A stretch of 64,000 nt of DNA from Verrucomicrobiales bacterium. Lineage in GTDB: Bacteria > Verrucomicrobiota > Verrucomicrobiia > Verrucomicrobiales > V1-33. How positions within the stretch are numbered: the stretch's first letter is position 1; each line of letters opens with the position of its first letter. The notes beneath the pieces were generated by a model that worked only from the letters and a program-made list of their open reading frames with translations, searched no databases and was not told where the DNA came from. The position numbers and the translations under genes were made by a program. The stretch is taken from positions 66,411 through 130,410 of the forward strand of contig DASZQB010000131.1 in NCBI GenBank assembly GCA_035550135.1. Direction: 5' to 3'. Below, in pieces: positions 2,630 to 53,460 of this stretch.

Positions 2630-3328
2630 ATGGCTGCCTTCAACCCCTCAAAGCTTCCGCTCTGGACCAGGTGGGGCCGCTATCCGGCCGTTCCCGAAGG
2701 CAGGATCCCGCGCTCAAAGCGATGCTTTGATCTGATCCTGCTGCTGGCGGCCGCGCCACTGTGGCTGCCTTTGTTGGCAATCACCGCTGTCGTCGTCCGG
2801 TGCAGTATTGGCAGACCGGTGTTGTTTTCACAGCAGCGCCCGGGCCTTGGCGCGCGTTTGTTTTTGCTGCGCAAATTTCGCACCATGACAAACGCATGCG
2901 ATGCGACCGGCCAATTGTTGCCGGATAGTGAACGGCTCACCGCGGCGGGGCGCTGGTTGCGTGCGTCGTCCCTCGATGAACTGCCCGGTCTCCTTTCCGT
3001 CCTGCGTGGAGAAATCAGCCTTGTTGGCCCGCGGCCGCTGCTTCCCGCATATCTTCCCCTCTATACTCCGGACCAGGCCCGGAGACATCAAGTGCTGCCC
3101 GGAATAACCGGCTGGGCTCAAGTGAACGGGCGGAACCGGATTCCGTGGGAGGAGAAATTTGAAATGGACGTGTGGTATGTTGATCATGCCTCTCTGGGGC
3201 TGGACCTCTATATCATCATGCGCACGCTGCTGAAAGTGCTCCGGCGGGAGGGCATTTCGGCGGATGGACAGGCTACCATGCCGGTTTTTGCCGGCACTCC
3301 GGAGAACGCTTTATCCAGGAGGCCTTAG
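2630..3328 (+). CDS. Undecaprenyl-phosphate sugar phosphotransferase (Bac_transf family, WbaP/EpsB-like short form)
   Basis: PF02397-type motifs: KRCFDLILLLAAAPLWLPLL (TM), GRPVLFSQQRPG, LRKFRTM, SLDELPGLLSVLRGEISLVGPRP, ITGWAQVNGRN. The start is placed at ATG 2630, the first ATG after the upstream stop at 2607-2609. The track start at 2576 overlaps the previous gene. Confidence 0.9.
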   Translation: MAAFNPSKLPLWTRWGRYPAVPEGRIPRSKRCFDLILLLAAAPLWLPLLAITAVVVRCSIGRPVLFSQQRPGLGARLFLLRKFRTMTNACDATGQLLPDSERLTAAGRWLRASSLDELPGLLSVLRGEISLVGPRPLLPAYLPLYTPDQARRHQVLPGITGWAQVNGRNRIPWEEKFEMDVWYVDHASLGLDLYIIMRTLLKVLRREGISADGQATMPVFAGTPENALSRRP

Positions 3329-41093: not shown

Positions 41094-41936
41094 TCAGGCC
41101 TTTCTGCGGCGGCGCATCAGCCCGGCGGCAGCGGCGAGAGCGAGGGAAACAGCGGCGGGTTCAGGGACGCTGACGCTGGCAGCGGCGGCGGCTTGAATTT
41201 CCGCAGCGGTCAGCACGGTATCATAGACACGGAGGCCGTCGATGCGCCCGCTCATCTGGTCGGAGTCATTGCCGCCGAGGCGGCCGCCAATCGTGAGCCG
41301 GGCTGCGGCCAGATCGTCCCCAAAAAGGCTGTTGTCGGCACCGCCGAGGAGATTGCCGTTTAAATAATAATTGATCGCGCCATTATTATAAGTGGCGGCG
41401 ATGTGCACCCAGTTTCCAGGAATGACCGCAAAGGGATCCGAATCGTTATCGAGCACGCCGTAGTTGGTGAACCGGATCGTGGAGGAACTTCCATCGGTTG
41501 TGGCAAGGCGAAGCGCGAGACCCCAGCCGCGGTCAGCTCCGGTGGCGCTTCCTGTCGAAATGGGCCGGTAGGAGCGCGCGGCGATGTCTCCGGCGGTCGG
41601 ATTCACCCATGACATAACGGTAAAAGCCCCGGTGCGCGGGATGTTCATGACCGGGTTGACATTGTCCGCGCCGCTGGTGAAAAAGCTGTCTGTGGTGCTC
41701 GGACCATAGCCAATGGAGGTGCCCACCGCATTGGTCACCGTGATGGCCCCGTAAACACCGTTTGGCACTCCCGCCTGTCCGTAAGCATTCGGCCCGATGG
41801 GTACCGCCGCAACATGCCCTCCGGTGGAGTCGATGAGGTTTCCGGAGGCTTCATCCTGATTCCATGAGGCGATCAGAGCAGCGCGGGCGGGCAGGCAGAA
41901 ACTCAGAAGAAGAAGCGGAAACGAAAGGGATTTCAT
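41094..41936 (-). CDS. PEP-CTERM protein with a LamG/concanavalin-like (Laminin_G_3) domain
   Basis: Signal peptide MKSLSFPLLLLSFCLPARA. NWVHIAATYNNGAINYYLNGNLLG and GRIDGLRVYDTVLTAAEI are LamG_3-type. The end reads SVSVPEPAAVSLALAAAAGLMRRRRKA. Confidence 0.85.
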   Translation of the reverse strand: MKSLSFPLLLLSFCLPARAALIASWNQDEASGNLIDSTGGHVAAVPIGPNAYGQAGVPNGVYGAITVTNAVGTSIGYGPSTTDSFFTSGADNVNPVMNIPRTGAFTVMSWVNPTAGDIAARSYRPISTGSATGADRGWGLALRLATTDGSSSTIRFTNYGVLDNDSDPFAVIPGNWVHIAATYNNGAINYYLNGNLLGGADNSLFGDDLAAARLTIGGRLGGNDSDQMSGRIDGLRVYDTVLTAAEIQAAAAASVSVPEPAAVSLALAAAAGLMRRRRKA

Positions 41937-42051
41937 CGAATTAAAAATGAGTGACGATCAAGCATTTACGAAATCAATTGGCGGGGCTCAATCCCAAAAT
42001 TTGATACAAATCGAATTTTTTCGCAGGTCCGGGAACTGATTGGTGGCCGGA

Positions 42052-42148
42052 GGTGCAAAATTCTGAAATTTTCCCGTGCCAAACGGCGGGAGATTGCCTA
42101 GTCTCGCCGCCCTTTAGGGAAAACTCCGATTCGCTGGTGCAAAATTCT
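42052..42148 (+). repeat. Two perfect 13-bp direct repeats GGTGCAAAATTCT upstream of the secretin gene
   Basis: Copies lie at 42052-42064 and 42136-42148, 84 bp apart start to start (about 8 helical turns), in an AT-richer leader. The function is unknown; they may be an operator or activator site. Confidence 0.5.
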
Positions 42149-42187
42149 TACTCATCTTCCAAACGGCCTTCCGGTTGCGTACTTCGA

Positions 42188-44677
42188 TTGCCTCAGCGCG
42201 GGGCGGTTGCGGGGGCGCTCTTACTTGGTTTATCGATGATGCCCGCGGCGCTGGCCGGGAGTGGCAAGGGTGATGAACCCCTGATCGTTTCCAAAGAGGT
42301 GGAGCGCCGGCTCAAAGCCAAAGATGAAGCTCAGCGGCTGGTGGCGGAGGGAGATGAACTCGCGGCTTCAGGAGATCAGTGCGGCGCGGCTGACAAGTAC
42401 TATGCAGCGGCGCAAATGCTTCGGCCCGGAGCGCCAGGGACCCTGCAGTTGCGCAACGAGGCGGTGAAAAAGTTCAGTGTATCGGGCGTGGCCTGTGCAA
42501 AGGAACAGGCGCATAATGGCGAGCATGAAAAGGCCTCGACGCGGGTGGAGCAGATCCTGGCGGATAACATGGCGCCCAGGGACAAGCCTGCGCTGGCACT
42601 GCAAAGGCATCTCAAGGACACGGACCGCTACAACCCCGCGTTGACGCCGAAGCATGTCGCGGATGTGAAAAAGGTGTCCAATTTGTTGATGATGGGAGAG
42701 CACTTCACGCAACTTGGCGATTATGATGCTGCGGAGAAATCCTACAATCAGGTGCTGGCCATCGATGCCACCAATACCGCAGCCCGTCGCGGACTGGAGG
42801 GGGTGGAAAGACTGATCACGAATTATTACAAGGCGGCGCGTGATCATACGCGGATAAAGATGCTCAACGACGTGGATCGCATCTGGGAGACCAAGGTGCC
42901 GTTTACCGGAGCGCGTCCCACCGGCATGGCCAACCCGGACGACGTCTATATTGGCGGCAGTGCGGTGGCTTCCAAGCTGCGCACGCTGATCATTCCGCAC
43001 GTCTCGTTTGCGGACGCATCACTGCCGGAGGTCGTTTCCTATCTGATCAAAAAGAGTATCGAAGTGGACCCGCAGGGACGCGGGGTGAATATCATTTGGA
43101 CGCCGGGGAACGGCGCTGCGACAAATCCGGTGACGCTGGAGTTGAGAAATGCCAGTCTTGGAGACGTGCTGCGCCAGGTGTGTCTGCTCAGCGGCACACG
43201 GTTTCAGACCGACGGCGGGCTCGTGAGGATCTCGGTGCAGGGCGGCAATGCCCTGGAGACGCGTCAGTTCAAGGTGCCGCCCGGATTTCTTTCCACGGCT
43301 GCCACGGCCGTCCCCGCGGAGGCGGCTGACCCTTTTGCAACCGGCGCGGCGGCAGCGGACAAGCCGAAGCTGGGCCGCCTCGACCCGAAGACGTTTCTTG
43401 AGCAGCAGGGTGTCGAGTTTCCCGCTGGATCGAGGGCCGGTTACAATGCGTCGCAAAATCTCCTGACCGTGACCAACACCTCGGAGAACCTGGACGCCAT
43501 CGCCACGCTTGTGGAAACGCTGACCACCTCCGGACAAAAGCAGGTGCTGGTTCAGATCGTGCTTCTCAAGTGCAGCCAGACGAATTTTGAGGAGCTGGGT
43601 TTTGATGTCTTCATGGACGCGTTCAAGGCGGGCGGAGGCGTTTTTGCGGAAGGCGGCACTTTTGGAAATTCCCCGGATTTCAGCCAGGGAGGCACATCCA
43701 CCGGCAACTTCGGCAATACCACGTTCGCGCCTCTCAACGTTCCCTTCAATGTGGTGAACGGTCCGATGACCGCCGGCTTGCGCAGTTCATACGAGCTCAC
43801 CCGCACGCAGACGATCGATGACCTCATCAATCTGGCGAACGGCATCAATCCAGTCCAGCCAGGACGGAGTCCGTACAATTTTGCAATCGGGGGGATATTC
43901 ACCAATCCGCGTTTTCAGGCGCTCTTCCGCGGGCTCAGCCAGAAGAAGGGAATCGACCTTTCCGTGGCCACGAAGACCATTGTGAAGAGCGGCCAGAAAG
44001 CCTCCGCGTTCTCCGGACGGAAGTTTCTGTATCCCACTGAATTCGATCCGCCGCAGATCCCGCAGACCATCCGGCGGAATCAGATTATCCTGTTCGACGA
44101 CCAAGGATTTCCCTTCATCGTCGATCTTCCGAATGATCAGGCGCCGGTGACACCAGCCACGCCCAGTTCGTTCCAGGAAAAGGACATCGGCTCCAGCGTC
44201 GAAGTGGAGGCGAACATTGCCGAGGACAACTATACGGTGGACCTGAACCTCGCCGTCGGTTTCACCGAGTTTGATGGATTTATCAACTACGGCACGCCGA
44301 TCATGACGGACAATGGCGTGGTCCTGACAGACAACCGCATCATTCAGCCGGTCTTCTCCAAAGTGGCTGCGAATACGCAGGTGCAGATTTACGACGGTCA
44401 AACCGTCGCGATTGGCGGCCTGTCCACAGCCAAGGTTGAAACGATTGAGGACAAAGTGCCGATCTTCGGGAGCATCCCCATCATCGGCAGACTCTTTAAG
44501 AGCAACCTGCAGCGCCACACGCGCACTGCGGTGGTCTATTTCGTCACGGTCAAGATTGTGGATCCCGCCGGCGAGGGCGTTCACGGAAGCAAGGTGCTTG
44601 AGGCCGCCGCCTCCGCGGGCGTGAACGTTTCCGATCTTTCCGGGTCCGATTCCATTCTGCTTCCGCCTCCCCAGTAA
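42188..44677 (+). CDS. Secretin-family outer-membrane channel (type II/III secretion system protein family) with a TPR-like N-terminal region
   Basis: C-terminal secretin domain (PF00263): VQIYDGQTVAIGGLSTAKVETIEDKVPIFGSIPIIGRLFKSNLQRHTRTAVVYFVTVKIV. N0/STN-like module: VTLELRNASLGDVLRQVCLLSGTRFQTDGGLVRI. TPR-like helices lie upstream of it. The start is uncertain. TTG 42188 gives the signal peptide (M)PQRGAVAGALLLGLSMMPAALAG; the track start GTG 42053 lies inside the direct repeat. Confidence 0.85.
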   Translation: MPQRGAVAGALLLGLSMMPAALAGSGKGDEPLIVSKEVERRLKAKDEAQRLVAEGDELAASGDQCGAADKYYAAAQMLRPGAPGTLQLRNEAVKKFSVSGVACAKEQAHNGEHEKASTRVEQILADNMAPRDKPALALQRHLKDTDRYNPALTPKHVADVKKVSNLLMMGEHFTQLGDYDAAEKSYNQVLAIDATNTAARRGLEGVERLITNYYKAARDHTRIKMLNDVDRIWETKVPFTGARPTGMANPDDVYIGGSAVASKLRTLIIPHVSFADASLPEVVSYLIKKSIEVDPQGRGVNIIWTPGNGAATNPVTLELRNASLGDVLRQVCLLSGTRFQTDGGLVRISVQGGNALETRQFKVPPGFLSTAATAVPAEAADPFATGAAAADKPKLGRLDPKTFLEQQGVEFPAGSRAGYNASQNLLTVTNTSENLDAIATLVETLTTSGQKQVLVQIVLLKCSQTNFEELGFDVFMDAFKAGGGVFAEGGTFGNSPDFSQGGTSTGNFGNTTFAPLNVPFNVVNGPMTAGLRSSYELTRTQTIDDLINLANGINPVQPGRSPYNFAIGGIFTNPRFQALFRGLSQKKGIDLSVATKTIVKSGQKASAFSGRKFLYPTEFDPPQIPQTIRRNQIILFDDQGFPFIVDLPNDQAPVTPATPSSFQEKDIGSSVEVEANIAEDNYTVDLNLAVGFTEFDGFINYGTPIMTDNGVVLTDNRIIQPVFSKVAANTQVQIYDGQTVAIGGLSTAKVETIEDKVPIFGSIPIIGRLFKSNLQRHTRTAVVYFVTVKIVDPAGEGVHGSKVLEAAASAGVNVSDLSGSDSILLPPPQ

Positions 44678-44752
44678 GCCGCCCCTCCTGTTTCCCCTTT
44701 ACAGACACGGCCTTCTGAAGGAGGCCGCATCTTACTCTTCCCTCCACCAACC

Positions 44753-46477
44753 GTGAGCAGCAATCCTGACCCGACCGGGGATCGCCGCAGTGTCCTGCCG
44801 CCGCGGCGGGATGCCGGAACGCCTCCTCCCTCCGCCCCTCCTCTCTCATCGCCTCCGAAGTCCTATTCGGTGGATGAGATGATGACAACTCTGCGCTCGC
44901 CCGAGGGTGGCAAACGCCGGCGCCGCAGCGTGCAACCGGTCGTTCAATCGCGCCGGCGCCGGCGTTTGTGGATCGTCCTCGGTCTCAGTGTGGTGTCGCT
45001 GGTGCTCGCGGGGTATTTCGGGTTCCGCTTCTATCAGCGAAACCGGCTAGAAGGGGAGACTTTCCGGGATGGTGTCAACCGGCGCATTTCCGAAGCCCTT
45101 GGCTGCCAGGTGGAGTTCAACCGGATCTATGATGGCGGTGATGAATCCCTCGCTGCCAAAGAAGCCCGTTTCGAGGTTCGGGATCCCGGCGACTTGATTC
45201 AATCCGGCACCTTCTCAAACCTGAGCGCATCGCTGACCGGCTCTTCGTGGGTGACGGACGAATGGGGCATTCTGATGCTCAATATCAACGAGGGGACCAT
45301 CACGCTGAATCCGAGCCGTCCGGATTTCCCGAACGACAGTACGGGTATCGTGCCGCACAGCGGCGGCGGAAGGCACGTCGGCGGATTCGGCATCAATCCG
45401 GAACCGGAGCGCATCACGCTGGATGAAGTCAGGTTCCTCAAAGGGCTCACGGTTGAATGGCCGGCATCCTCCGGCGCCGGTCAGACCACTGAGGCGATCA
45501 AGAAGTTGCGCGGGCACGCAAAGATCGCGCGCAGCGGAGGAATGAGCGGAACGTTCATCGACGGCAGCGTGGCTCTCAACCAAATGCCCGAAATGCGCAT
45601 TCAGAACCTGAACTGGAAACTCAGCGGGCGGAAACTGGATGTCGCAGGCGGCAGCATTAAATTCGGCGGACGCGCCCAGGCATCGGTGTCGGGCAAGGCC
45701 GATCTTGTTAGTGATGGCTCGGCGGAATTCACGGCGGATTTTGAATCGACACCGCTGGCGACGCTCCTTCCTCCGGCATGGCACGAAGCGGTGCTGGGCC
45801 TGTTTTCCGCGCAGAAGACGACGTTCCGCGCGAGCTTTGGCAAGGGACCGGAGCGCGTGTTCGAGGGGGACTTCAAGGTGGTGGGAGCCATCTTCCAGGG
45901 GTTCACCTTCTTTGATAAAGCCTCTGAAGCGCTGGGGAGAAATGTAGAAGTGCAGCGTCCGGAATTCCCGGTGCTAACCGGTCACTTTAAGTGGTCCCCA
46001 TCGACCGGCCTCGAACTGACAAACCTTTTCGGTGAGCGCGGTGAGTTGCTGCGCATGAGCGGGTCTGTCACCCTCACTGAAAGCGGCCCGGTAAAGGGAC
46101 GCTTGAAGCTTTCCACCAGCGAGAACGCGCTCCGCAACGTGAAAAAATCCGCGCCCCAGCTTTTCGGACCGTTCGAGGACGGCTGGGCGTCTTTCGAGTT
46201 TAACGTCAGCGGCACGGCCAAGGCAATCGTCGATGACATTGACTTGAAAACGGCCGCCCGCGGCCCCGACAGCCCTGCTCCGGACGGGGCCGCTTCAACT
46301 CCCTCTCCCACGCAGCAAGTCCCGGCCGCCCCTCAAAATCCGGCGGCCGCACCGGCTCCGAATCGGAGAGCGCCGGCACCGGCACCCTCTGCTCCGCCGC
46401 GTCCGAAACCGTCGAACGCGGAGCTGGAAAAGCAGATGGAGGATTTGCTGCGCGCTAACAAGTCCGCGCCGCGGTGA
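44753..46477 (+). CDS. Hypothetical bitopic membrane protein with a Pro/Ala-rich C-terminal tail
   Basis: Start at GTG 44753 (alternative ATG 44879). It has a Pro/Arg-rich N-terminus, a single TM helix RLWIVLGLSVVSLVLAGYFGF, a ~430-aa extracytoplasmic region, and the tail PAPDGAASTPSPTQQVPAAPQNPAAAPAPNRRAPAPAPSAPPRPKP. It lies 75 nt downstream of the secretin on the same strand. Confidence 0.6.
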   Translation: MSSNPDPTGDRRSVLPPRRDAGTPPPSAPPLSSPPKSYSVDEMMTTLRSPEGGKRRRRSVQPVVQSRRRRRLWIVLGLSVVSLVLAGYFGFRFYQRNRLEGETFRDGVNRRISEALGCQVEFNRIYDGGDESLAAKEARFEVRDPGDLIQSGTFSNLSASLTGSSWVTDEWGILMLNINEGTITLNPSRPDFPNDSTGIVPHSGGGRHVGGFGINPEPERITLDEVRFLKGLTVEWPASSGAGQTTEAIKKLRGHAKIARSGGMSGTFIDGSVALNQMPEMRIQNLNWKLSGRKLDVAGGSIKFGGRAQASVSGKADLVSDGSAEFTADFESTPLATLLPPAWHEAVLGLFSAQKTTFRASFGKGPERVFEGDFKVVGAIFQGFTFFDKASEALGRNVEVQRPEFPVLTGHFKWSPSTGLELTNLFGERGELLRMSGSVTLTESGPVKGRLKLSTSENALRNVKKSAPQLFGPFEDGWASFEFNVSGTAKAIVDDIDLKTAARGPDSPAPDGAASTPSPTQQVPAAPQNPAAAPAPNRRAPAPAPSAPPRPKPSNAELEKQMEDLLRANKSAPR

Positions 46478-46517
46478 TTTTTGGCGGAGGCGCGACGGCA
46501 GCAGCAAAGGAGAAACC

Positions 46518-47906
46518 GTGGACCTCTTTCCTTCCAGCGCCAAAATCGCCGGCCCTGAGCCGGAAAGAGTTCTAACGGTCACGCAGGTGACGCGGCAGGT
46601 GAAGGACGTGCTGGAGCAGCAGTTGGGCGCAGTGTGGGTGCAGGGAGAAATCAGCAATCACCGGAGGCAGACGAGCGGGCATCATTACTTCACACTGAAG
46701 GATGCCGGGGCGCAGTTGAGTTGTGTCCTGTTTAAAGGAAACGCCCAGTTTGTCAGGGCGCCGCTGGCGGATGGATTGATGGTTCAGGTCTTTGGAGACA
46801 TCACTGTTTATGAGGCGCGCGGGCAGTATCAAATGCTGGTGAGAAAAGTGCAGGCCGCGGGGCAGGGGGCGCTTCAGGCGAGATTCGAGGAACTGAAACG
46901 GCGGCTGCTGGCTGAAGGATTGTTTGCCGCGGAGATCAAGAAAAGCATTCCGCGGTTTCCGAGGGTGGTTGCGATCGTGACCTCGTCCACGGGAGCCGCG
47001 CTGCAGGACATGCTGAACATCCTGAGCCGCCGCGCCCCGTATCTGCATATTCTCGTGGCTTCGGTTCGGGTGCAGGGAGTGGGCGCGGAGCATGAAATTG
47101 CCGCGGCGCTGCATTTGCTGAGCGGGGAAAGTGGACGGGGACTGCCGGTCGTTGACACCGTCGTGGTGGCGCGCGGCGGCGGAAGTCTCGAAGACCTGTG
47201 GTGCTTCAATGAAGAGGTGGTCGCGCGGGCCATTTTTGCATGCCGCATCCCGGTGATCAGCGCGGTGGGACATGAGATCGATTTCACGATCAGCGACTTT
47301 ACCGCGGACCTTCGTGCGCCCACGCCCAGCGCTGCCGCGGAACTTCTGGCGCCGGATCGTGAAGAACTGCTTGCCGTCCTGACACAACAGGGCCTGCGCA
47401 TGCATCGCCGTGTGTTGCAGGCCGTGGATACCGCTCAGCGGGTAATCGATCTCACGGCGCGCGGCCCATTTCAACGCGATCCTGAACGGGTGCTGCTTCC
47501 GTGGCGTCAGCGCCTCGATGAGGCGGCTGGCGCGTTGCAAACCTTCATCGGTGAAGCCATCCAGCACCGGACGGAGGCCGTGCAAGTGCTGCAGCATCGC
47601 CTGGAATTGAAGCGCCCCGACCGCGTGCTGGCGGAAAGGGGCGCGGCGGTGAAGATGCTTCAGGAACGAATGACTTCGCGTGTCACTGTGGCGATCGAGA
47701 GGCTGCGGGCGGCTCTGAATCAGCGCGCCGGCCTGCTGCGCACGCTGGGCCCGGAAGCAACGCTGGAGCGCGGATTCACCTGCACCCTCGATGCGAAAGG
47801 CCGCGTGGTGCGTGAAGCCGCGCAACTCCAGCCGGGCGAGGAATTCGAAACGCGGTTCCGGAAGGGGCGCGTGCACGGTGTGGTGAAGACGGTGGAAGTT
47901 TCCTAA
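46518..47906 (+). CDS. xseA: Exodeoxyribonuclease VII large subunit
   Basis: VTQVTRQVKDVLEQQLGAVWVQGEISNHRRQTSGHHYFTLKDAGAQLSCVLF (OB fold). The central catalytic region includes IVTSSTGAALQD and RGGGSLEDLW. GTG start. Confidence 0.9.
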   Translation: MDLFPSSAKIAGPEPERVLTVTQVTRQVKDVLEQQLGAVWVQGEISNHRRQTSGHHYFTLKDAGAQLSCVLFKGNAQFVRAPLADGLMVQVFGDITVYEARGQYQMLVRKVQAAGQGALQARFEELKRRLLAEGLFAAEIKKSIPRFPRVVAIVTSSTGAALQDMLNILSRRAPYLHILVASVRVQGVGAEHEIAAALHLLSGESGRGLPVVDTVVVARGGGSLEDLWCFNEEVVARAIFACRIPVISAVGHEIDFTISDFTADLRAPTPSAAAELLAPDREELLAVLTQQGLRMHRRVLQAVDTAQRVIDLTARGPFQRDPERVLLPWRQRLDEAAGALQTFIGEAIQHRTEAVQVLQHRLELKRPDRVLAERGAAVKMLQERMTSRVTVAIERLRAALNQRAGLLRTLGPEATLERGFTCTLDAKGRVVREAAQLQPGEEFETRFRKGRVHGVVKTVEVS

Positions 47907-47974
47907 CTATGAGCCGCGGGCGCTTGCCGGGAAGGCGCGGTGGTCCGTCGAGAGGATTCCGCGGTATTCCGGCA

Positions 47975-48085
47975 TCCAGCCCTGAAAGGGCGGAGCAACA
48001 GAGCCAGGGGTAAGCCTGCGGAGCAGGCGCAGCCCCTGGTATTCGGCCAAAATATTTTGGAGCCCTGAAAGGGCGAGACAACGGA
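47975..48085 (-). repeat. REP-like array, about 1.3 units, inverted orientation
   Basis: Read on the minus strand: GTTGTCTCGCCCTTTCAGGGCT, spacer, CCAGGGGCTGCGCCTGCTCCGCAGGCTTACCCCTGG, then CTCTGTTGCTCCGCCCTTTCAGGGCTGG. GCCCTTTCAGGGC is a 5-bp-stem hairpin. The 36-nt element is an imperfect palindrome (48004-48039 on the plus strand). Confidence 0.85.
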
Positions 48086-48128
48086 AAGTGGCGTGACAAA
48101 TGTCCCGTTTCCGGCAATTCCTCGAACC

Positions 48129-48578
48129 ATGCCTCAATCTCTCGCTCAGATTTACGTCCACCTCATTTTCTCCACGAAGGACCGGATGCCAGTCATATCC
48201 GAAGAGGTGAAGCCGTGGCTTCATGCCTACATCGCGGGTGCGTTGAATGCGATTTCCAACTCTGCGCTTAAGGTCGGAGGCGTGGAGGATCATGTGCATA
48301 TTCTGTTCCGGCTTTCGAAAAACAGCGCCCTGACAGATGTTGTGAAGGCGGCGAAGGTTGAGTCATCCAAATGGATGAAGAAGGAAGGAGGTGTCAGGGA
48401 ATTCGCGTGGCAGGGAGGATACGGAGCGTTTTCAGTGAGTGCCTCGCACCTTGAGGACGTCACGGAATATGTTGCGAAACAGGAGGAACGGCACCGGCGT
48501 CGTACTTTTCAGGAGGAGTTCCGGATTCTCCTGGAGCGATATAAGGTTGAATACAATGAGGCATGGGTGTGGGATTGA
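48129..48578 (+). CDS. REP-associated tyrosine transposase (RAYT) / IS200-like Y1 transposase family protein
   Basis: MPQSLAQIYVHLIFSTKDR..., HUH motif in EDHVHILF, catalytic Tyr context EYVAKQEERH (Y-x3-Q); PF01797-like. 149 aa from ATG 48129 (track start 48093). Confidence 0.85.
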   Translation: MPQSLAQIYVHLIFSTKDRMPVISEEVKPWLHAYIAGALNAISNSALKVGGVEDHVHILFRLSKNSALTDVVKAAKVESSKWMKKEGGVREFAWQGGYGAFSVSASHLEDVTEYVAKQEERHRRRTFQEEFRILLERYKVEYNEAWVWD

Positions 48579-48613
48579 AGGACCAGTCGAATGTGAGGGG
48601 CATGGTCGGTCGG

Positions 48614-48803
48614 TTGTCCCGCCCTTTCAGGGCTTTGAATTTGTGTCGTGTCTTTACCAGGGATTGCGCCTGCTTCGCAGGCTTATCCCTGGCTATGTTG
48701 CCGCGCCCTTTCAGGGCTTTCGAGTTCGTTGGGCGGAAATCCAGGAGTGCGCTTGGTTCGCAGGCTTACCTGGGCTTTGTTGTCCCGCCCCTTTCAGGGC
48801 TGG
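48614..48803 (+). repeat. REP-like array, about 2.3 units of ~86 bp
   Basis: The unit is GTTG(T/C)CCCGCCCTTTCAGGGCT, a ~24-nt spacer, then CCAGGGATTGCGCCTGCTTCGCAGGCTTATCCCTGG. Small hairpins lie at 48621-48634, 48704-48718 and 48787-48801. Long palindromes lie at 48658-48692 and, degenerate, at 48741-48773. Confidence 0.85.
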
Positions 48804-48838
48804 ACGGGGTCAATTGGGGGTATTGCGAACGAGGCGGC

Positions 48839-51800
48839 TCATTTTGATCGTTTGTCAGGATACACCGGGGCGGAGGGAACGGGGCGGGGGTCTTTGGCGA
48901 TGAGGTCCTGGAGGTGTTTGAGGGCGGCGTCGAGCTGGGCATCGCCGCCTTTGAAGGTGGAGACGGGGAGGTTGTCCACGATGATGTCAGGGTCCACGCC
49001 GTGACCTTCGATGAGCCATTTGCCTTCGGGACCGAAGACGCCGATCTCGGCGGCGGAGGCGATGCCTTTGTCTGCGAGTTCGTTTTCGAAGCTGAGCCAA
49101 ATCTCGCCGCCCCAGGTGCGGGTGCCGATCACTTTGCCGATGCCGAGACGTTTGACGCCTTCGCTGAAGGCCTCCCCGTCGGAGGCGGTGAACTCATCGC
49201 ACAAAACGCAGACGTGGCCGCGGAAGGCGTATTGCATATTCCATTCGGGGTTACCGGTGCGGGGCTGCCAATACATCCATGCCTTGCGCAGAAGCCGGCC
49301 AATGAGCCAACTGTCGATGTTGCCGCCGCGGTTATGACGCACGTCGATGATGAGACCCTGACGATTGTAAACGGGATAAAATTCGCGCGCCCATGCGGCC
49401 ATGTCCTGTTCCTGCATGGCGCGCAGGTGGACATAGCCGATATTGCCTTTGCCGTCGGCCTCCACTTTGAGGCGTCGCGTGTATTCCCACTCGCTGTAGC
49501 GAAGATTCGCGGCGGCGCGGAAGGGTACAGGGCGCACAATAGTTTCGCGTGCCGGATCTGCGCCGGTTTTCAATGTCAGGAGCACCTGCTTGCCATCCAT
49601 TCGCCGGAGAGCGGCGCCATAGTGCGGCAATTGAGAGAAGGGCTGGCCGTTGATGGCGGTGATGAGATCGCCTTCGCGCACGCCGGCCTCCGGTTTTGCC
49701 AGAGGCGCGAGGAGGGCGGGGAAGTCGGGATCAGTTTTGGGGATGTGCGTCACTTTCCATCCGCCGGCGGCCGGATCGGCGTCAAGGCGAGCGCCGAGGG
49801 AGGCAGTGTCAATATCGTCAGGGCCGCTGCGGGCATCACCATCGCGGACGAAAATGTGCAGCGCGGAAAGCTCGCCGACCATTTCGGACATGAGGTCCGC
49901 GAGTTCCTGACGGTCCGCCACGCGGTCCACGAGCGGCAGGTATTTTTTCCGGACGGCCTCCCAGTCGAGCGCGTGCATTTTGGCATCGTAGAACCAGTCG
50001 CGCATGAGCCGCCATGAGTCGGTGAACATCTGACGCCATTCGTCGCGCGGATTGATGGAAAAGGCCCAGTTGTCGAGCTGCACTTTGGCTTCGTCGAGTT
50101 TGTCCGCGTCGCCGGAGGCATCCAGAACGTAGAGGGCATTCTCCTTTCTCACTAACAATTTTTTGCCATCGGCGGAGAAGTCGTAGCCCTTGATATCCTC
50201 CACCATGTTTTTTGCTTTCGGCTTTTCGTTAGTGATCTTCAAACGCTGGAGGTGCCTTTTTGCCTTGAAGTCGGTTTCGCCGCGCACCCAGAAGAGGAAT
50301 TCCCCCTTTGCGCTGAGCGCGCTGTAGTTGCCGGCTTCGACGGGCACTTCGTAGAGGCGGGTGGTTAGGCCGTCGGCTTCCACTTTTACTTCGGTGGAAG
50401 AAGCCTTGTCCTCTTTCTTTTCATCCTTCTTCTCCTCTTTCTTCGAGTCGTCGTCTTTTTTGGGCCTGTGCAGTTCGTCGGCAGGCAGGAAGGGCCAGCG
50501 CTCCGATTTTGTCAAGCCCACGGCAAAAATCTTCGTGACCTGATCAAAAAAGGGCTCCGGCTGGCGGGGACCCCATGGGCTTTCGACAAGGGTGCGCAGT
50601 TCGCGGTCGGAAAGGAAGTAGAGCCATTTTCCGTCAGGCGACCATGCGGGACTGTAACTTTCCACGCGATCGCTGGTAACGGTGAGGCGCGCGTTGTCGC
50701 TGACGCGCTGGATAAAGATCTGGCGCACGGTATTCGCGGCGGGCTGCACCCATGCGATCCATGCGCTGTCCGGCGACCACGCAAGGCCTTCGAATTCTCC
50801 CGCCGGGCTTTTGGCGAGAACAGCGGTCGTCTTTTTGTCGGCGCTCCAGAGGAGCAACTGACGGTCGCGGTCGTGGAAGAGAATCCATTTTCCATCCGGT
50901 GAAGGCAGGCCTTCATAACGATAATTCGTGCCGCCGCTGGTAAGCGCCTGCGGAGTGCCGGAGCCGTTGGCGGGATATTGCCAGAACTCCAGTTCGCCGG
51001 AGGCATCGCTGAGAGCGACAATCGATTTTCCGTCCGGCAGGAAGCGTCCGTAGCGGCTGCGCACGCCAGCATTGCGCGAGACTTCGACGAACCTCCCGTC
51101 CTTCACCGGAGCGACAAACAACTGCCCGCGCGCAGTGAGCACCACGCGGTCGCCGTCCGGTGAGAGGTTTGCGGCGGTGAGATAATCCATGGGTTTGGAA
51201 ACCCATTTCTCACGCTGGTGATCGGCGTCGGTCGCGAGAGTAATGGGAATCCGGGCGGACTGGCCGTTCGTCAGGTCGAGGCGGTGGAGATCCGCGCCGA
51301 GTTGATAGACGACGGTATTGCCGGAGATGGCGGGGGATTTTACGTCGTAGTCTTTGTGCTGCGTGTGCTGGGTTAGTTCCTTGCCGTCCGGCAGCATGGA
51401 CCAAAGGTTCATGATGCCGTCGCGATCTGTCAGGAAAACGACGCGCTCGCCCCACCAGAGCGGAGAACGGCTGGTGCCCGGGAAGTCCGGCGTGACGGGT
51501 ACCGCTTCCGGCTGTCCGGTGGACCATCGCCAGAGGTTCTGCGCGGTGCCGCCCTGGTAGCGCTTGGTGCTGCTGCCCTGGAAGGCGAAGCGTGTGAAGA
51601 CAAGCGTTTGGCCCTGGGCATTCCACGCGCCGTCGCTGGCCTGAGACAGTGGCACGGGCTGCAGGCCGGTGCCGTCGGTGGCGATGCTGAGAAGTTGGTA
51701 GTCCGGCAAACCGGCCATGAGACGCGTGGCGAAGAGGATGCGTCCGTCCGGAGTCCAGCCGGTGAAAGCGGGCTGAGCAGTCTCCCATGTAAGGCGGCGC

Positions 51801-52093
51801 GGTCTTCCTCCTTCCGCGGGCATGACGTAAAGTTCCGCGGGGCCTTCATATTCTCCGGAAAAGGCGACCCATTTGCCATCGCGGGAAATCGAGGCGCGCG
51901 TTTCCGCACCGGGATGCGTGGTCAGGCGCTGCGCTGCACCGCCTGCAAGGGACACGCGCCAGAGGTCGCCCTCCGCGGTGAAGATGACGGTTTCACTATG
52001 GATGGCAGGATAGCGGTAATAGCCTGCGGGTCCCTGCGCCAGCAGGGCGGAAGAGAGGGAGAGGAAGACGGTGAGAGCGGATACCGGTTTCAT
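48839..52093 (-). CDS. Tricorn protease homolog (S41 family; beta-propellers, PDZ and C-terminal peptidase)
   Basis: Signal peptide MKPVSALTVFLSLSSALLAQG. YRYPAIHSETVIFTAEGDLWRVSLAGGAAQRLTTHPGAETRASISRDGKWVAFSGEYEGPAELYVM is a typical tricorn N-terminus. TolB-like repeats follow, then a PDZ-like segment (GDLITAINGQPF) and the S41 core (IDVRHNRGGN...CDEFTASDGEAF). Confidence 0.9.
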   Translation of the reverse strand: MKPVSALTVFLSLSSALLAQGPAGYYRYPAIHSETVIFTAEGDLWRVSLAGGAAQRLTTHPGAETRASISRDGKWVAFSGEYEGPAELYVMPAEGGRPRRLTWETAQPAFTGWTPDGRILFATRLMAGLPDYQLLSIATDGTGLQPVPLSQASDGAWNAQGQTLVFTRFAFQGSSTKRYQGGTAQNLWRWSTGQPEAVPVTPDFPGTSRSPLWWGERVVFLTDRDGIMNLWSMLPDGKELTQHTQHKDYDVKSPAISGNTVVYQLGADLHRLDLTNGQSARIPITLATDADHQREKWVSKPMDYLTAANLSPDGDRVVLTARGQLFVAPVKDGRFVEVSRNAGVRSRYGRFLPDGKSIVALSDASGELEFWQYPANGSGTPQALTSGGTNYRYEGLPSPDGKWILFHDRDRQLLLWSADKKTTAVLAKSPAGEFEGLAWSPDSAWIAWVQPAANTVRQIFIQRVSDNARLTVTSDRVESYSPAWSPDGKWLYFLSDRELRTLVESPWGPRQPEPFFDQVTKIFAVGLTKSERWPFLPADELHRPKKDDDSKKEEKKDEKKEDKASSTEVKVEADGLTTRLYEVPVEAGNYSALSAKGEFLFWVRGETDFKAKRHLQRLKITNEKPKAKNMVEDIKGYDFSADGKKLLVRKENALYVLDASGDADKLDEAKVQLDNWAFSINPRDEWRQMFTDSWRLMRDWFYDAKMHALDWEAVRKKYLPLVDRVADRQELADLMSEMVGELSALHIFVRDGDARSGPDDIDTASLGARLDADPAAGGWKVTHIPKTDPDFPALLAPLAKPEAGVREGDLITAINGQPFSQLPHYGAALRRMDGKQVLLTLKTGADPARETIVRPVPFRAAANLRYSEWEYTRRLKVEADGKGNIGYVHLRAMQEQDMAAWAREFYPVYNRQGLIIDVRHNRGGNIDSWLIGRLLRKAWMYWQPRTGNPEWNMQYAFRGHVCVLCDEFTASDGEAFSEGVKRLGIGKVIGTRTWGGEIWLSFENELADKGIASAAEIGVFGPEGKWLIEGHGVDPDIIVDNLPVSTFKGGDAQLDAALKHLQDLIAKDPRPVPSAPVYPDKRSK

Positions 52094-52838: not shown

Positions 52839-53063
52839 ATGACAAAAACTCTGGAAGAACGCGTGGCTGCCCTTGAAAAGGAGTTGGCTGAAATGAAAGC
52901 ACGGCCCTGGTTGTCACCGCCGATGAGCAAAGACTGGATGAGTACGGTGGGATGGGCCGCGGAAAGCGATGTACATGACGCTGCGGCCCTTGCGGGAGAG
53001 GATTATCGTCGCAATCAAACTTACGAAAAAGAGCTCGAAACACGTGGTGGTTCTGGACACTAA
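52839..53063 (+). CDS. Putative antitoxin of a VapBC-like pair (family not recognised)
   Basis: 74-aa ORF whose 3' end overlaps the PIN gene by 20 nt. The N-terminal helix is TLEERVAALEKELAEMK. I could not recognise an AbrB, RHH, Phd or MerR motif. Confidence 0.55.
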   Translation: MTKTLEERVAALEKELAEMKARPWLSPPMSKDWMSTVGWAAESDVHDAAALAGEDYRRNQTYEKELETRGGSGH

Positions 53064-53460
53064 TCATCTGACCGTCTTAACGAAAGGTGGCCCGCGAGCT
53101 CAGCGGTTGGTCGCCAGACTTGAGAAGTCGACCCAGGAGGTGGTGACCAGTGTGGTTTGTGTAGAAGAGAGGATACAGGGATGGATTTCTGAAATCCGCC
53201 GGAGGGACCTTTGGGGACAGGTGGAGGCCTATCGTGAATTCAGCCAATTGATTGAAACGTATGCCCGGTGGATATTGCTTCCCTGGGATGAGGAAGCCGC
53301 TAATCTCTTTGTGAAGTTTCGTGCGGCGGGAGTTCGCATTGGCACGATGGACCTGAAGATTGCGTGTATTACAATCACGCATGATGCACTGTTGCTGACT
53401 CAAAACGCCGCCGATTTTGCGAAAGTGCCCGGTCTGCGTTCTGAGGACTGGCTGGAGTAG
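53044..53460 (+). CDS. vapC: Type II toxin VapC (PIN-domain ribonuclease)
   Basis: 138 aa from GTG 53044: VVVLDTNHL (Asp 1), CVEERIQG (Glu), GTMDLKIACI (Asp), LLTQNAADF, in the PF01850 order. The track ORF 52969 extends upstream into the antitoxin gene. Confidence 0.8.
   Translation: MVVLDTNHLTVLTKGGPRAQRLVARLEKSTQEVVTSVVCVEERIQGWISEIRRRDLWGQVEAYREFSQLIETYARWILLPWDEEAANLFVKFRAAGVRIGTMDLKIACITITHDALLLTQNAADFAKVPGLRSEDWLE

Follow-up and report, generated by a model that had tools for sequence, protein, structure and literature searches.

Some transposases of the Y1 type serve insertion sequences, and others are encoded by single-copy genes that stand between inverted palindromic repeats. The latter arrangement is known for REP-associated tyrosine transposases (RAYTs), where REP denotes a repetitive extragenic palindromic element, and for the REPtrons that such genes and repeats make up (Nunvar 2010; Bertels and Rainey 2011; Ton-Hoang 2012; class 2 of Quentin et al. 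2018). In this report, we describe a locus from a Verrucomicrobiales bacterium in which a gene for a 149-amino-acid (aa) Y1/HUH protein is bracketed by inverted copies of a repeat composed of three hairpins. The locus lies in a stretch of 64,000 nucleotides (nt) of contig DASZQB010000131.1 (GenBank assembly GCA_035550135.1, positions 66,411 to 130,410). This whole stretch is called the window, and coordinates given without a locus name are positions in it.

The described systems differ both in their proteins and in their DNA partners. RAYTs of class 2 have the motif Y-x3-NP, and their repeats are single hairpins of 20-40 nt with a GT[AG]G foot that occur in hundreds of copies. Insertion sequences of the IS200, IS608 and ISDra2 kind (subclass 1.1) encode proteins with Y-x3-Q. 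They have distinct left and right subterminal hairpins on one strand, have no terminal inverted repeats, are present in multiple copies that are nearly identical within a genome, and often carry tnpB. TIRYTs, which form TIRtrons with long inverted repeats unrelated to GTAG REPs (Di Nocera, De Gregorio and Rocco 2013, PMC3733652), belong mostly to subclass 2.1 and have a helix-turn-helix tail and a GGGGWSAS motif in the repeat; some of the repeats are moderately abundant. TnpAY1 proteins of class 3, described as intermediate between insertion sequences and REPtrons, have the motifs NHVH, W[TA] and Y-x4-Q, a length of about 178 aa, and a CnGA foot. Subclass 1.2 is defined by the signatures DH[IV]H, WQ and YIKNQKEHH (that is, Y-x3-Q-x2-HH), a median length of 148 aa and a 30-aa C-terminal domain. 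It averages 1.7 copies per genome at 36% identity, compared with 99% for IS200, is found mostly in Cyanobacteria and Bacteroidetes, and is recorded as "REP: no" (Quentin et al. 2018, PMC6006769).

A further described element proved relevant. The Acido-Lenti-1 motif was rated a probable small RNA of Acidobacteria and Lentisphaerae by Weinberg et al. in 2010 (PMC2864571), and a 2026 preprint states that little is known of its function.

Taken by itself, the locus in the window is an ordinary member of its family. The notable result is that subclass 1.2 is tied to an extended form of the Acido-Lenti-1 element. We think it probable, if well short of settled, that the locus is a REPtron-like cassette on the IS200 branch, in which a single-copy subclass-1.2 gene is bracketed by inverted cognate three-hairpin repeats.

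A Y1 gene between inverted three-hairpin repeats

The Y1 reading frame runs from ATG 48129 to TGA 48576-48578 and is intact, and alignment with homologues favours this start over GTG 48093. In the product, HVHILF occupies residues 55-60, Y114-x3-Q118 reads Y-V-A-K-Q, and Pfam PF01797 (Y1_Tnp) is matched with E = 9e-23. The protein scores 53.8 bits with the NCBIfam IS200 model NF033573, just under the cut-off of 55, and 18 bits with the REP_Tyr_transpos model NF047646, for which the cut-off is 80. The only solved relatives detected by sequence are ISDra2 TnpA and a second Deinococcus transposase. An AlphaFold (AF2) model of the protein (pLDDT 88, pTM 0.82) has its best matches in the Protein Data Bank among the folds of ISDra2, IS608 and IS200 TnpA (E = 7e-9 to 3e-6), and E. 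coli TnpA_REP (4er8) follows at rank 30 (E = 6e-5). Judged by sequence, motif and predicted fold, the protein is grouped with IS200/IS605 TnpA. The database label "REP element-mobilizing transposase RayT", which we take to be the generic name of COG1943, was not counted as evidence.

The family is large: a word-indexed search returned 4427 proteins at E <= 0.001, and an exhaustive search returned 165 clusters (50% identity) at E <= 1e-30. Some members (P0241-P0250, P0253, P0255 and others) are about 290 aa long and consist of two tandem Y1 domains, each 31-41% identical to the query. Y1 transposases act as dimers, and for this reason the tandem proteins could be single-chain dimers.

The family consensus contains DHVH, AWQ, and YIxNQxEHH followed by RTFQEEFRxLLERYxxxYDEAYVWD, and the C-terminal tail of about 30 aa is conserved. 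The window protein has DHVH, AWQ and YVAKQEERH, with one H replaced by R (H121R), and retains 31 of 31 invariant family residues. By its published signature, TnpAY1 subclass 1.2 of Quentin et al. is the class that the protein matches, with RH in the window protein where the published signature has HH. Shared features are the signatures, the length of about 148 aa, the C-terminal tail, the low copy number, and the lack of tnpB and of IS200-type ends.

The DNA on both sides of the gene is organized in composites of a small hairpin (H), a palindrome (P) and a second small hairpin (H), with the inner H modules facing the gene on both sides (Table 1). The right side (48613-48804) begins 36 nt past the Y1 stop codon and reads H-P-H-P*-H with a period of 82-84 nt. 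The left side is a mirror-image H-P-H, in that 47975-48085 is the reverse complement of the right flank, with 89% complementarity over arms of 64 nt and a perfect match of the outermost 16 nt to their inverted partner (TCCAGCCCTGAAAGGG / CCCTTTCAGGGCTGGA). Four exact copies and one single-mismatch copy of GCCCTTTCAGGGC occur in the window, all five of them at this locus; 0.17 copies are expected in 64 kb, and none of 100 shuffles reached five. When folded as single-stranded DNA (ssDNA), the intact composites form the three predicted hairpins (z = -4.3 to -4.7), and the second right-hand unit does not (z = -0.6). The additional partial unit acquired on the right is already in decay.

The locus and its relatives resemble REPtrons in having a Y1 gene, single-copy in the window, with inverted palindromic brackets, in the gene-less inverted pairs elsewhere in genomes of relatives, in a genome-specific repeat variant, and in a gene kept at one locus. 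In contrast to RAYTs, its protein is of class 1, and the repeats of its family are three-hairpin composites of about 90-120 nt, present in tens of copies, that lack the GT[AG]G foot; in the window, none of the hairpins has GT[AG]G next to it. RAYT membership was rejected on the Y-x3-NP motif, the NF047646 score and the foot. IS200, IS608 and ISDra2 are closest in sequence and structure and share Y-x3-Q and small hairpins as presumed recognition elements; however, the flanks here are mirror copies, and classification as an IS200-type insertion sequence was rejected on these mirror-image ends and on the absence of tnpB, with no multiple near-identical copies of the element seen in the window or in 36 contigs of two exact relatives. 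TIRtrons are similar in their long inverted repeats unrelated to GTAG REPs, but the subclass-2.1 features, the helix-turn-helix tail and GGGGWSAS are not found here, the last having been sought on either strand of 47900-48900. TIRYT and class 3 membership were both rejected on motifs.

A sequence-only reading made earlier from this stretch anticipated much of this arrangement. It had described a 149-aa HUH/Tyr protein with HVHILF and Y-x3-Q and proposed the Pfam search that is reported above. It had also described about 1.3 repeat units on the left and 2.3 on the right, in opposite orientation, each with a short hairpin and a 36-nt palindrome; all of these are present, the third palindrome in decayed form. 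Its label, a domesticated RAYT, fits in part. A Y1/HUH protein with inverted, structured cognate repeats in a REPtron-like layout agrees with it, and Y-x3-Q, the NF047646 score, the missing foot and the low rank of the TnpA_REP fold do not. It had set this label against a protein that clusters with IS200/IS605 TnpA and has insertion-sequence ends and a TnpB remnant nearby. IS200-like sequence and fold are what we find, and TnpB and IS200-type asymmetric ends are absent at the locus. The reading was also unaware of such an arrangement in bacteria of the Planctomycetota-Verrucomicrobiota-Chlamydiota (PVC) group. GTAG REPs and RAYTs have been reported in Planctomycetes and Opitutus terrae (PMC3733652); therefore, the PVC group is not virgin ground, whereas this protein and repeat family is.

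Conservation of the repeat and its relation to Acido-Lenti-1

Homologues that are 67-69% identical, in a Verrucomicrobiaceae genome and in Prosthecobacter fusiformis, have the same flanks in unrelated gene contexts. A scan of species-representative genomes for TGNNNCGCCCTTTCAGGGCT yielded at least 120 stretches. Among the matches listed, the carriers belong to Planctomycetota, Verrucomicrobiota, Acidobacteriota, Hydrogenedentota, Desulfobacterota, Myxococcota, Bacteroidota and others, and a palindrome of at least 6 bp lies downstream of the motif in 125 of 148, most commonly CCCAGGGC...GCCCTGGG, and is mostly followed by a second small hairpin. In the resulting anatomy, H consists of a foot T-n-t-n-n-C, a 5-bp stem and a TTC loop, and is followed by a spacer of about 22 nt. 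P, which invariably has CT behind it, is made up of an 8-bp stem and a loop of 3-40 nt; some 12 nt of linker then lead to the second H.

We derived a covariance model (R1) from 74 composites, using other genomes only and leaving the window out. When applied to the window, R1 finds both flanks, with the scores given in Table 1, and also a lone terminal H as a partial match at 48781. The intact composites score level with the best of the other genomes. A match at 3025-3119 on the plus strand (13.7 bits, E = 0.14) has a broken palindrome stem and was treated as chance.

A second sample was chosen by protein. When metagenomes were scanned with the protein alignment, 80 loci at 44-59% identity were obtained, all of them with R1 matches (231 in total). 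The density of matches is 4.9 per kb at distances of up to 250 nt from the gene. In 55 of 77 loci, the start codon is preceded by a minus-strand copy at a median distance of 14 nt, and in 44 of 71 loci, a plus-strand copy follows the stop codon at a median distance of 10.5 nt. The commonest arrangement is (-,+), as in the window, and a less sensitive nhmmer test finds this form in about 43% of loci. This association of gene and repeat is conserved family-wide and extends over at least six phyla of bacteria. The published description of subclass 1.2 is REP-free, whereas these relatives are flanked by a conserved three-hairpin repeat in every sampled locus, and the relatives known from this work occur in Verrucomicrobiota, Planctomycetota, Acidobacteriota, Desulfobacterota, Myxococcota and Bacteroidota.

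Individual loci depart from this pattern. At L218:2330-2460, the upstream composite is in the plus orientation and none follows the gene, owing to a kinase gene whose end is 37 nt distant; thus, not every locus has the bracket.

All three stems of the composite covary. In the protein-chosen sample, pairing holds in 96.8% of cells, both partners have changed in 17 of 18 pairs, and compensatory cells number 350 versus 72 in shuffles, with slid controls at 65% or less. In this sample, the proximal hairpin was not set by the search pattern, and we relied on it instead of an earlier count (A2) that was biased by the choice of complementary stems. Two circumstances complicate the assessment: alignments fitted with a covariance model lean towards the structure of the model, and the sequences used to build R1 were picked for complementary stems. 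The composite of Persicobacter is independent of this model-fitting bias. Its stems, AACCCT/AGGGTT in H and CGATGGGT/ACCCATCG in P, occupy the same positions with wholly different sequences, and the structure is kept.

Gene-less copies are common. Among the 120 motif-found loci in the matches listed, a Y1 gene or fragment accompanies the motif in only 11. Composites are present in 89 of the other 109, and 54 of those are (-,+) pairs, arranged head to head and separated by a median of about 20 nt, an arrangement that equals the gene's own bracket without the gene. Gene-less pairs and single copies elsewhere in the genomes of relatives resemble the resident gene-linked copy. For example, the orphans of Pirellulaceae KatS3mg111 that lie on another contig share 90-91% identity with the copy beside the gene, compared with 65% between genomes. 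For Persicobacter sp. JZB09, a single Y1 gene was detected in the PLSDB records (tblastn, E <= 1e-10), alongside at least 14 composite places, of which nine are on the 632-kb replicon, four on the 1.58-Mb replicon and one on the 859-kb replicon. P. psychrovividus has the composite at 13 places on one replicon. The genome-wide repeat family that the sequence-only reading had predicted is thus seen in relatives as dispersed families that are small, with tens of copies and not hundreds as in E. coli or Pseudomonas. Orphan density in relatives is low, and the analogy to REPs is therefore quantitative only at tens of copies. The intergenic bias that it had proposed to examine is crudely supported in the relatives' composites, of whose bases about 45% lie in long stop-free stretches, compared with a background of 87%.

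In KatS3mg111, a four-composite array surrounds one Y1 gene (L046:3853-5535), with three of the composites 92.6-97.5% identical including spacers, and two more copies lie 417 nt apart on the other contig (L073:6532-7066). These copies look like recent local amplification.

Part of the composite has been described before. Compared with the Rfam model of Acido-Lenti-1 (RF01687; gathering score 37), 48657-48718 scores 31.9 bits and the other copy of the window 20.2. An 18-nt inner stem-loop within the palindrome keeps the window copies below the gathering score. In related loci, copies of the P-H part score 37-55 bits; the gathering score is attained both next to Y1 genes, at 9 of 20 loci, and by orphans. 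On sequence comparison, the P-H part of the composite is the Acido-Lenti-1 motif, which takes in P, the CUA linker and the distal H. The Rfam entry differs in having no Y1 link and no proximal H module, and in being described as a small RNA. In the literature searched, we found no report that ties Acido-Lenti-1 to a Y1 gene.

The Acido-Lenti-1 motif may accordingly be not a small RNA but part of the ssDNA substrate of subclass 1.2, and the two may form an old REPtron-like partnership across multiple phyla, of IS200-branch origin and independent of class-2 RAYTs and REPs. We hold this wider proposal to be evenly balanced between right and wrong. If it is true, the domestication of a Y1 transposase with a captive repeat family happened at least twice, and the three-hairpin composite, with two cleavage-type hairpins around a palindrome, is a new substrate architecture.

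The results correct the only published description of subclass 1.2, in which REPs are absent, and add the IS200-like branch to the class-2 RAYTs as a setting in which a nuclease is paired with its own repeat family. This pairing reaches phyla in which REP biology has barely been studied, including the PVC group, Acidobacteriota, Bacteroidota and others. For Acido-Lenti-1, without an explanation since 2010, the results also offer a testable identity, and the short length and strong conservation of the elements make binding and cleavage assays simple to design. For annotation, the genes are neither plain "IS200/IS605 transposase" nor "RayT", and the small-RNA label for the flanking hairpins should be used with caution.

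Alternative readings and a possible mechanism

Several observations weigh against a REPtron-like cassette. The R1 scan found no copy in the other approximately 63 kb of the window, and in the 80-locus sample no R1 match lies in about 84 kb at distances of more than 1.25 kb from the gene. By NCBIfam scores and fold, the protein is nearer to true IS200 transposases than to RAYTs. The cassette has a GC content of 55% (61% at third codon positions, GC3, in the reading frame), compared with 60% for the window and a GC3 of 72-73% in the neighbouring genes. Synteny with the closest relative, L127, ends exactly at the cassette. Moreover, in L225, an xseA 3' part that is 92.5% identical to that of the window (738/798 nt; L225:1-1314 versus 47109-48420) is followed by about 510 nt, comprising spacer, left repeat and start of the Y1 gene, that are 100% identical. 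The two sources of bias in the covariation assessment also belong here.

Many of these points would be explained if the whole 830-bp unit, that is, structured terminal inverted repeats of about 105 nt plus tnpA, were an autonomous low-copy insertion sequence, and if the gene-less pairs were internal-deletion derivatives similar to miniature inverted-repeat transposable elements. We regard this explanation as unlikely, yet as one that has to be taken seriously. The perfect 16-nt terminal inverted repeat does bound the unit, the protein is nearest to IS200/IS605 TnpA in sequence and fold, the composition is below that of the neighbours at a synteny break, and homologues with 67-74% identity stand in unrelated gene contexts. 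Also, the H hairpin is nearly identical across at least six phyla, suggesting horizontal spread; the gap of orphan pairs (about 20 nt) is close to the sum of the two gene-to-repeat gaps; and some genomes contain gene fragments (L017, L025, L059). Against this, the same protein was never seen in two contexts: P0083 and P0060, as exact proteins, are encoded on 17 and 19 contigs of many samples, with one gene context each. Near-identical copies of the whole element were seen neither in the window, where the gene is single-copy, nor in these 36 contigs, and the low copy number and divergence recorded for subclass 1.2 are unlike those of IS200 (PMC6006769). The divergence of the Y1 gene tracks that of a host gene in L004 and L218, which have a common NUDIX/NrtR neighbourhood (Y1 70% and the NUDIX neighbour 72% identical), and repeats far outnumber genes. 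As for L225, the block of 100% identity opens at about the xseA stop codon and takes in 68 nt outside the end of the repeat, so recombination fits and independent insertion does not. The jump in identity suggests a recent recombination between strains, or a chimeric metagenome contig.

The repeats might instead be RNA elements, either Acido-Lenti-1 small RNAs or hairpins that act in untranslated regions as terminators or stabilisers, with a regulatory or incidental association to the Y1 gene. The scores with RF01687, at or above the gathering score in relatives, the covarying stems, and the rating of the motif as a probable RNA by Weinberg et al. (PMC2864571) point in this direction. So does the sole terminator-like site of the region, formed by H1 and TTTGAATTTG on the plus strand directly after the Y1 stop codon. 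However, the covariation of a palindrome supports DNA hairpins as well as RNA, and the copies flank a gene for an ssDNA-hairpin nuclease in mirror orientation. A strand-specific RNA would need two divergent promoters, and no sigma-70-like promoter was found in 47800-49000, in a scan that is uninformative for Verrucomicrobiota. Orphans are mostly inverted pairs and local arrays, and copies within a genome are 90-97% identical, like those of a proliferating repeat. An improbable explanation remains, to our mind, the fitting description of the RNA reading. A related suggestion, that the downstream array acts as a terminator or stabiliser for the tricorn protease gene, had been made from the sequence alone, and the terminator role is weak: the array ends 34 nt past the stop codon of that gene, no T-run stands behind the hairpins on the strand of the tricorn mRNA, and the terminator-like site serves the Y1 gene. 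Finally, the locus could be a dead relic, a decayed IS200-like gene with its repeats and without current activity. The degenerate second right-hand unit, the replacement of a nearly invariant His (H121R) and the absence of other copies in the window would agree with decay. Nevertheless, we give this explanation very little credence in view of the full-length frame with all of its invariant family residues, the two intact composites that score as high as the best of other genomes, and the identity of the cassette in several metagenomes.

If the locus is indeed a REPtron-like cassette, its mechanism can be outlined from the structures of IS608 and ISDra2 TnpA and the biochemistry of TnpA_REP, which are established knowledge for the family. 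The structures of ISDra2 and IS608 TnpA were solved with DNA hairpins bound. By analogy, a dimer of the protein would bind the H hairpins in ssDNA, for example, on the lagging-strand template. It would cut and rejoin the DNA beside these hairpins by means of Tyr114, with His55 and His57 holding the metal. Candidate cleavage positions are the conserved unpaired ones, namely T1 and C6 of the foot, the TTC loop, and the CT after P. Gene-less repeat pairs would be copied or moved in trans, with the gene staying at one site. More speculatively, the C-terminal tail and the P palindrome might make a second contact.

Feature coordinates and genomic setting

Table 1. Features of the locus and its two neighbouring genes in the window. 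Feature, position, strand, and basis or remarks.
Feature	Position	Strand	Basis or remarks
xseA (exonuclease VII large subunit), left neighbour, outside the element	46518..47906	+	Synteny in relatives stops at its stop codon
Left composite, H-P-H	47975..48085	-	R1 47977-48080, 66.3 bits, E = 8e-14; ssDNA z = -4.4
Outer left H hairpin	47979..47991	-	5-bp stem GCCCT/AGGGC, loop TTC on the minus strand
Left P palindrome, 36 nt	48004..48039	-	Outer stem CCAGGGG/CCCCTGG, inner stem GCCTGC/GCAGGC
Inner left H hairpin	48062..48074	-	Foot TGTCTC at 48075-48080, minus strand
Y1/HUH single-strand DNA endonuclease/transposase gene	48129..48578	+	Pfam, NCBIfam, family consensus, AF2 fold
Right composite 1, H-P-H, intact	48613..48719	+	R1 48615-48719, 68.4 bits, E = 3e-14; ssDNA z = -4.3
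H1 hairpin, foot TGTCCC	48621..48633	+	Followed by TTTGAATTTG; only terminator-like site of the region
P1 palindrome, 36 nt	48657..48692	+	ssDNA fold
H2 hairpin	48705..48717	+	Distal H of unit 1 and proximal H of unit 2
P2, decayed palindrome, stem no longer complementary	48741..48774	+	88% repeat identity; z = -0.6 (48697-48804)
H3 hairpin, one extra C, plus TGGA	48787..48804	+	Right outer end; 16-nt inverted partner of 47975-47990
Tricorn-type protease gene, right neighbour, outside the element	48839..52093	-	Convergent with the Y1 gene

On the left of the cassette, 41100-47906 is syntenic with L127:715-7470, with genes for a LamG-like protein, a secretin, a hypothetical protein and XseA at 46-76% protein identity. 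In L127, whose XseA is 76% identical, the genes upstream of xseA are held in common and those downstream are different; they are of Amuc_1102, PilM and Amuc_1100 types and none of them is found in the window. In L128 and L129, the genes on either side are different, and no clean case of an empty site, with xseA beside the tricorn gene and no cassette, was found among these three relatives. The order xseA-Y1-tricorn recurs in three Logan runs, and the adjacency of xseA and Y1 in two JGI contigs. No second Y1 gene is present in the 64-kb window.

Carriage of the family by viruses or plasmids was rejected. The protein is nearly absent from plasmids (2 of 72,556 records), and IMG/VR contains three motif matches, two of them true composites, compared with about seven estimated by chance. 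The two are good composites (61-73 bits) on contigs L226:7905-8097 and L227:1309-1408, and one of them is a head-to-head pair.

Composites or P-H parts were also seen on metagenome-assembled genomes binned as Klebsiella pneumoniae, Escherichia coli or Akkermansia muciniphila (L010, L033, L024, L052, L121). Those binned as Enterobacteriaceae are probably binning errors. A variant with a P-like ...CACCCTGGGCTG in front of the matched hairpin is common to L024, L033 and L121.

Past the tricorn gene, two overlapping plus-strand reading frames of 74 aa (52839-53063) and 163 aa (52969-53460) occupy 52839-53460. The longer frame has a weak PIN-domain match (L001 gene 14784-15275), and, as far as their arrangement suggests, the pair has the layout of a VapBC-type toxin-antitoxin pair.

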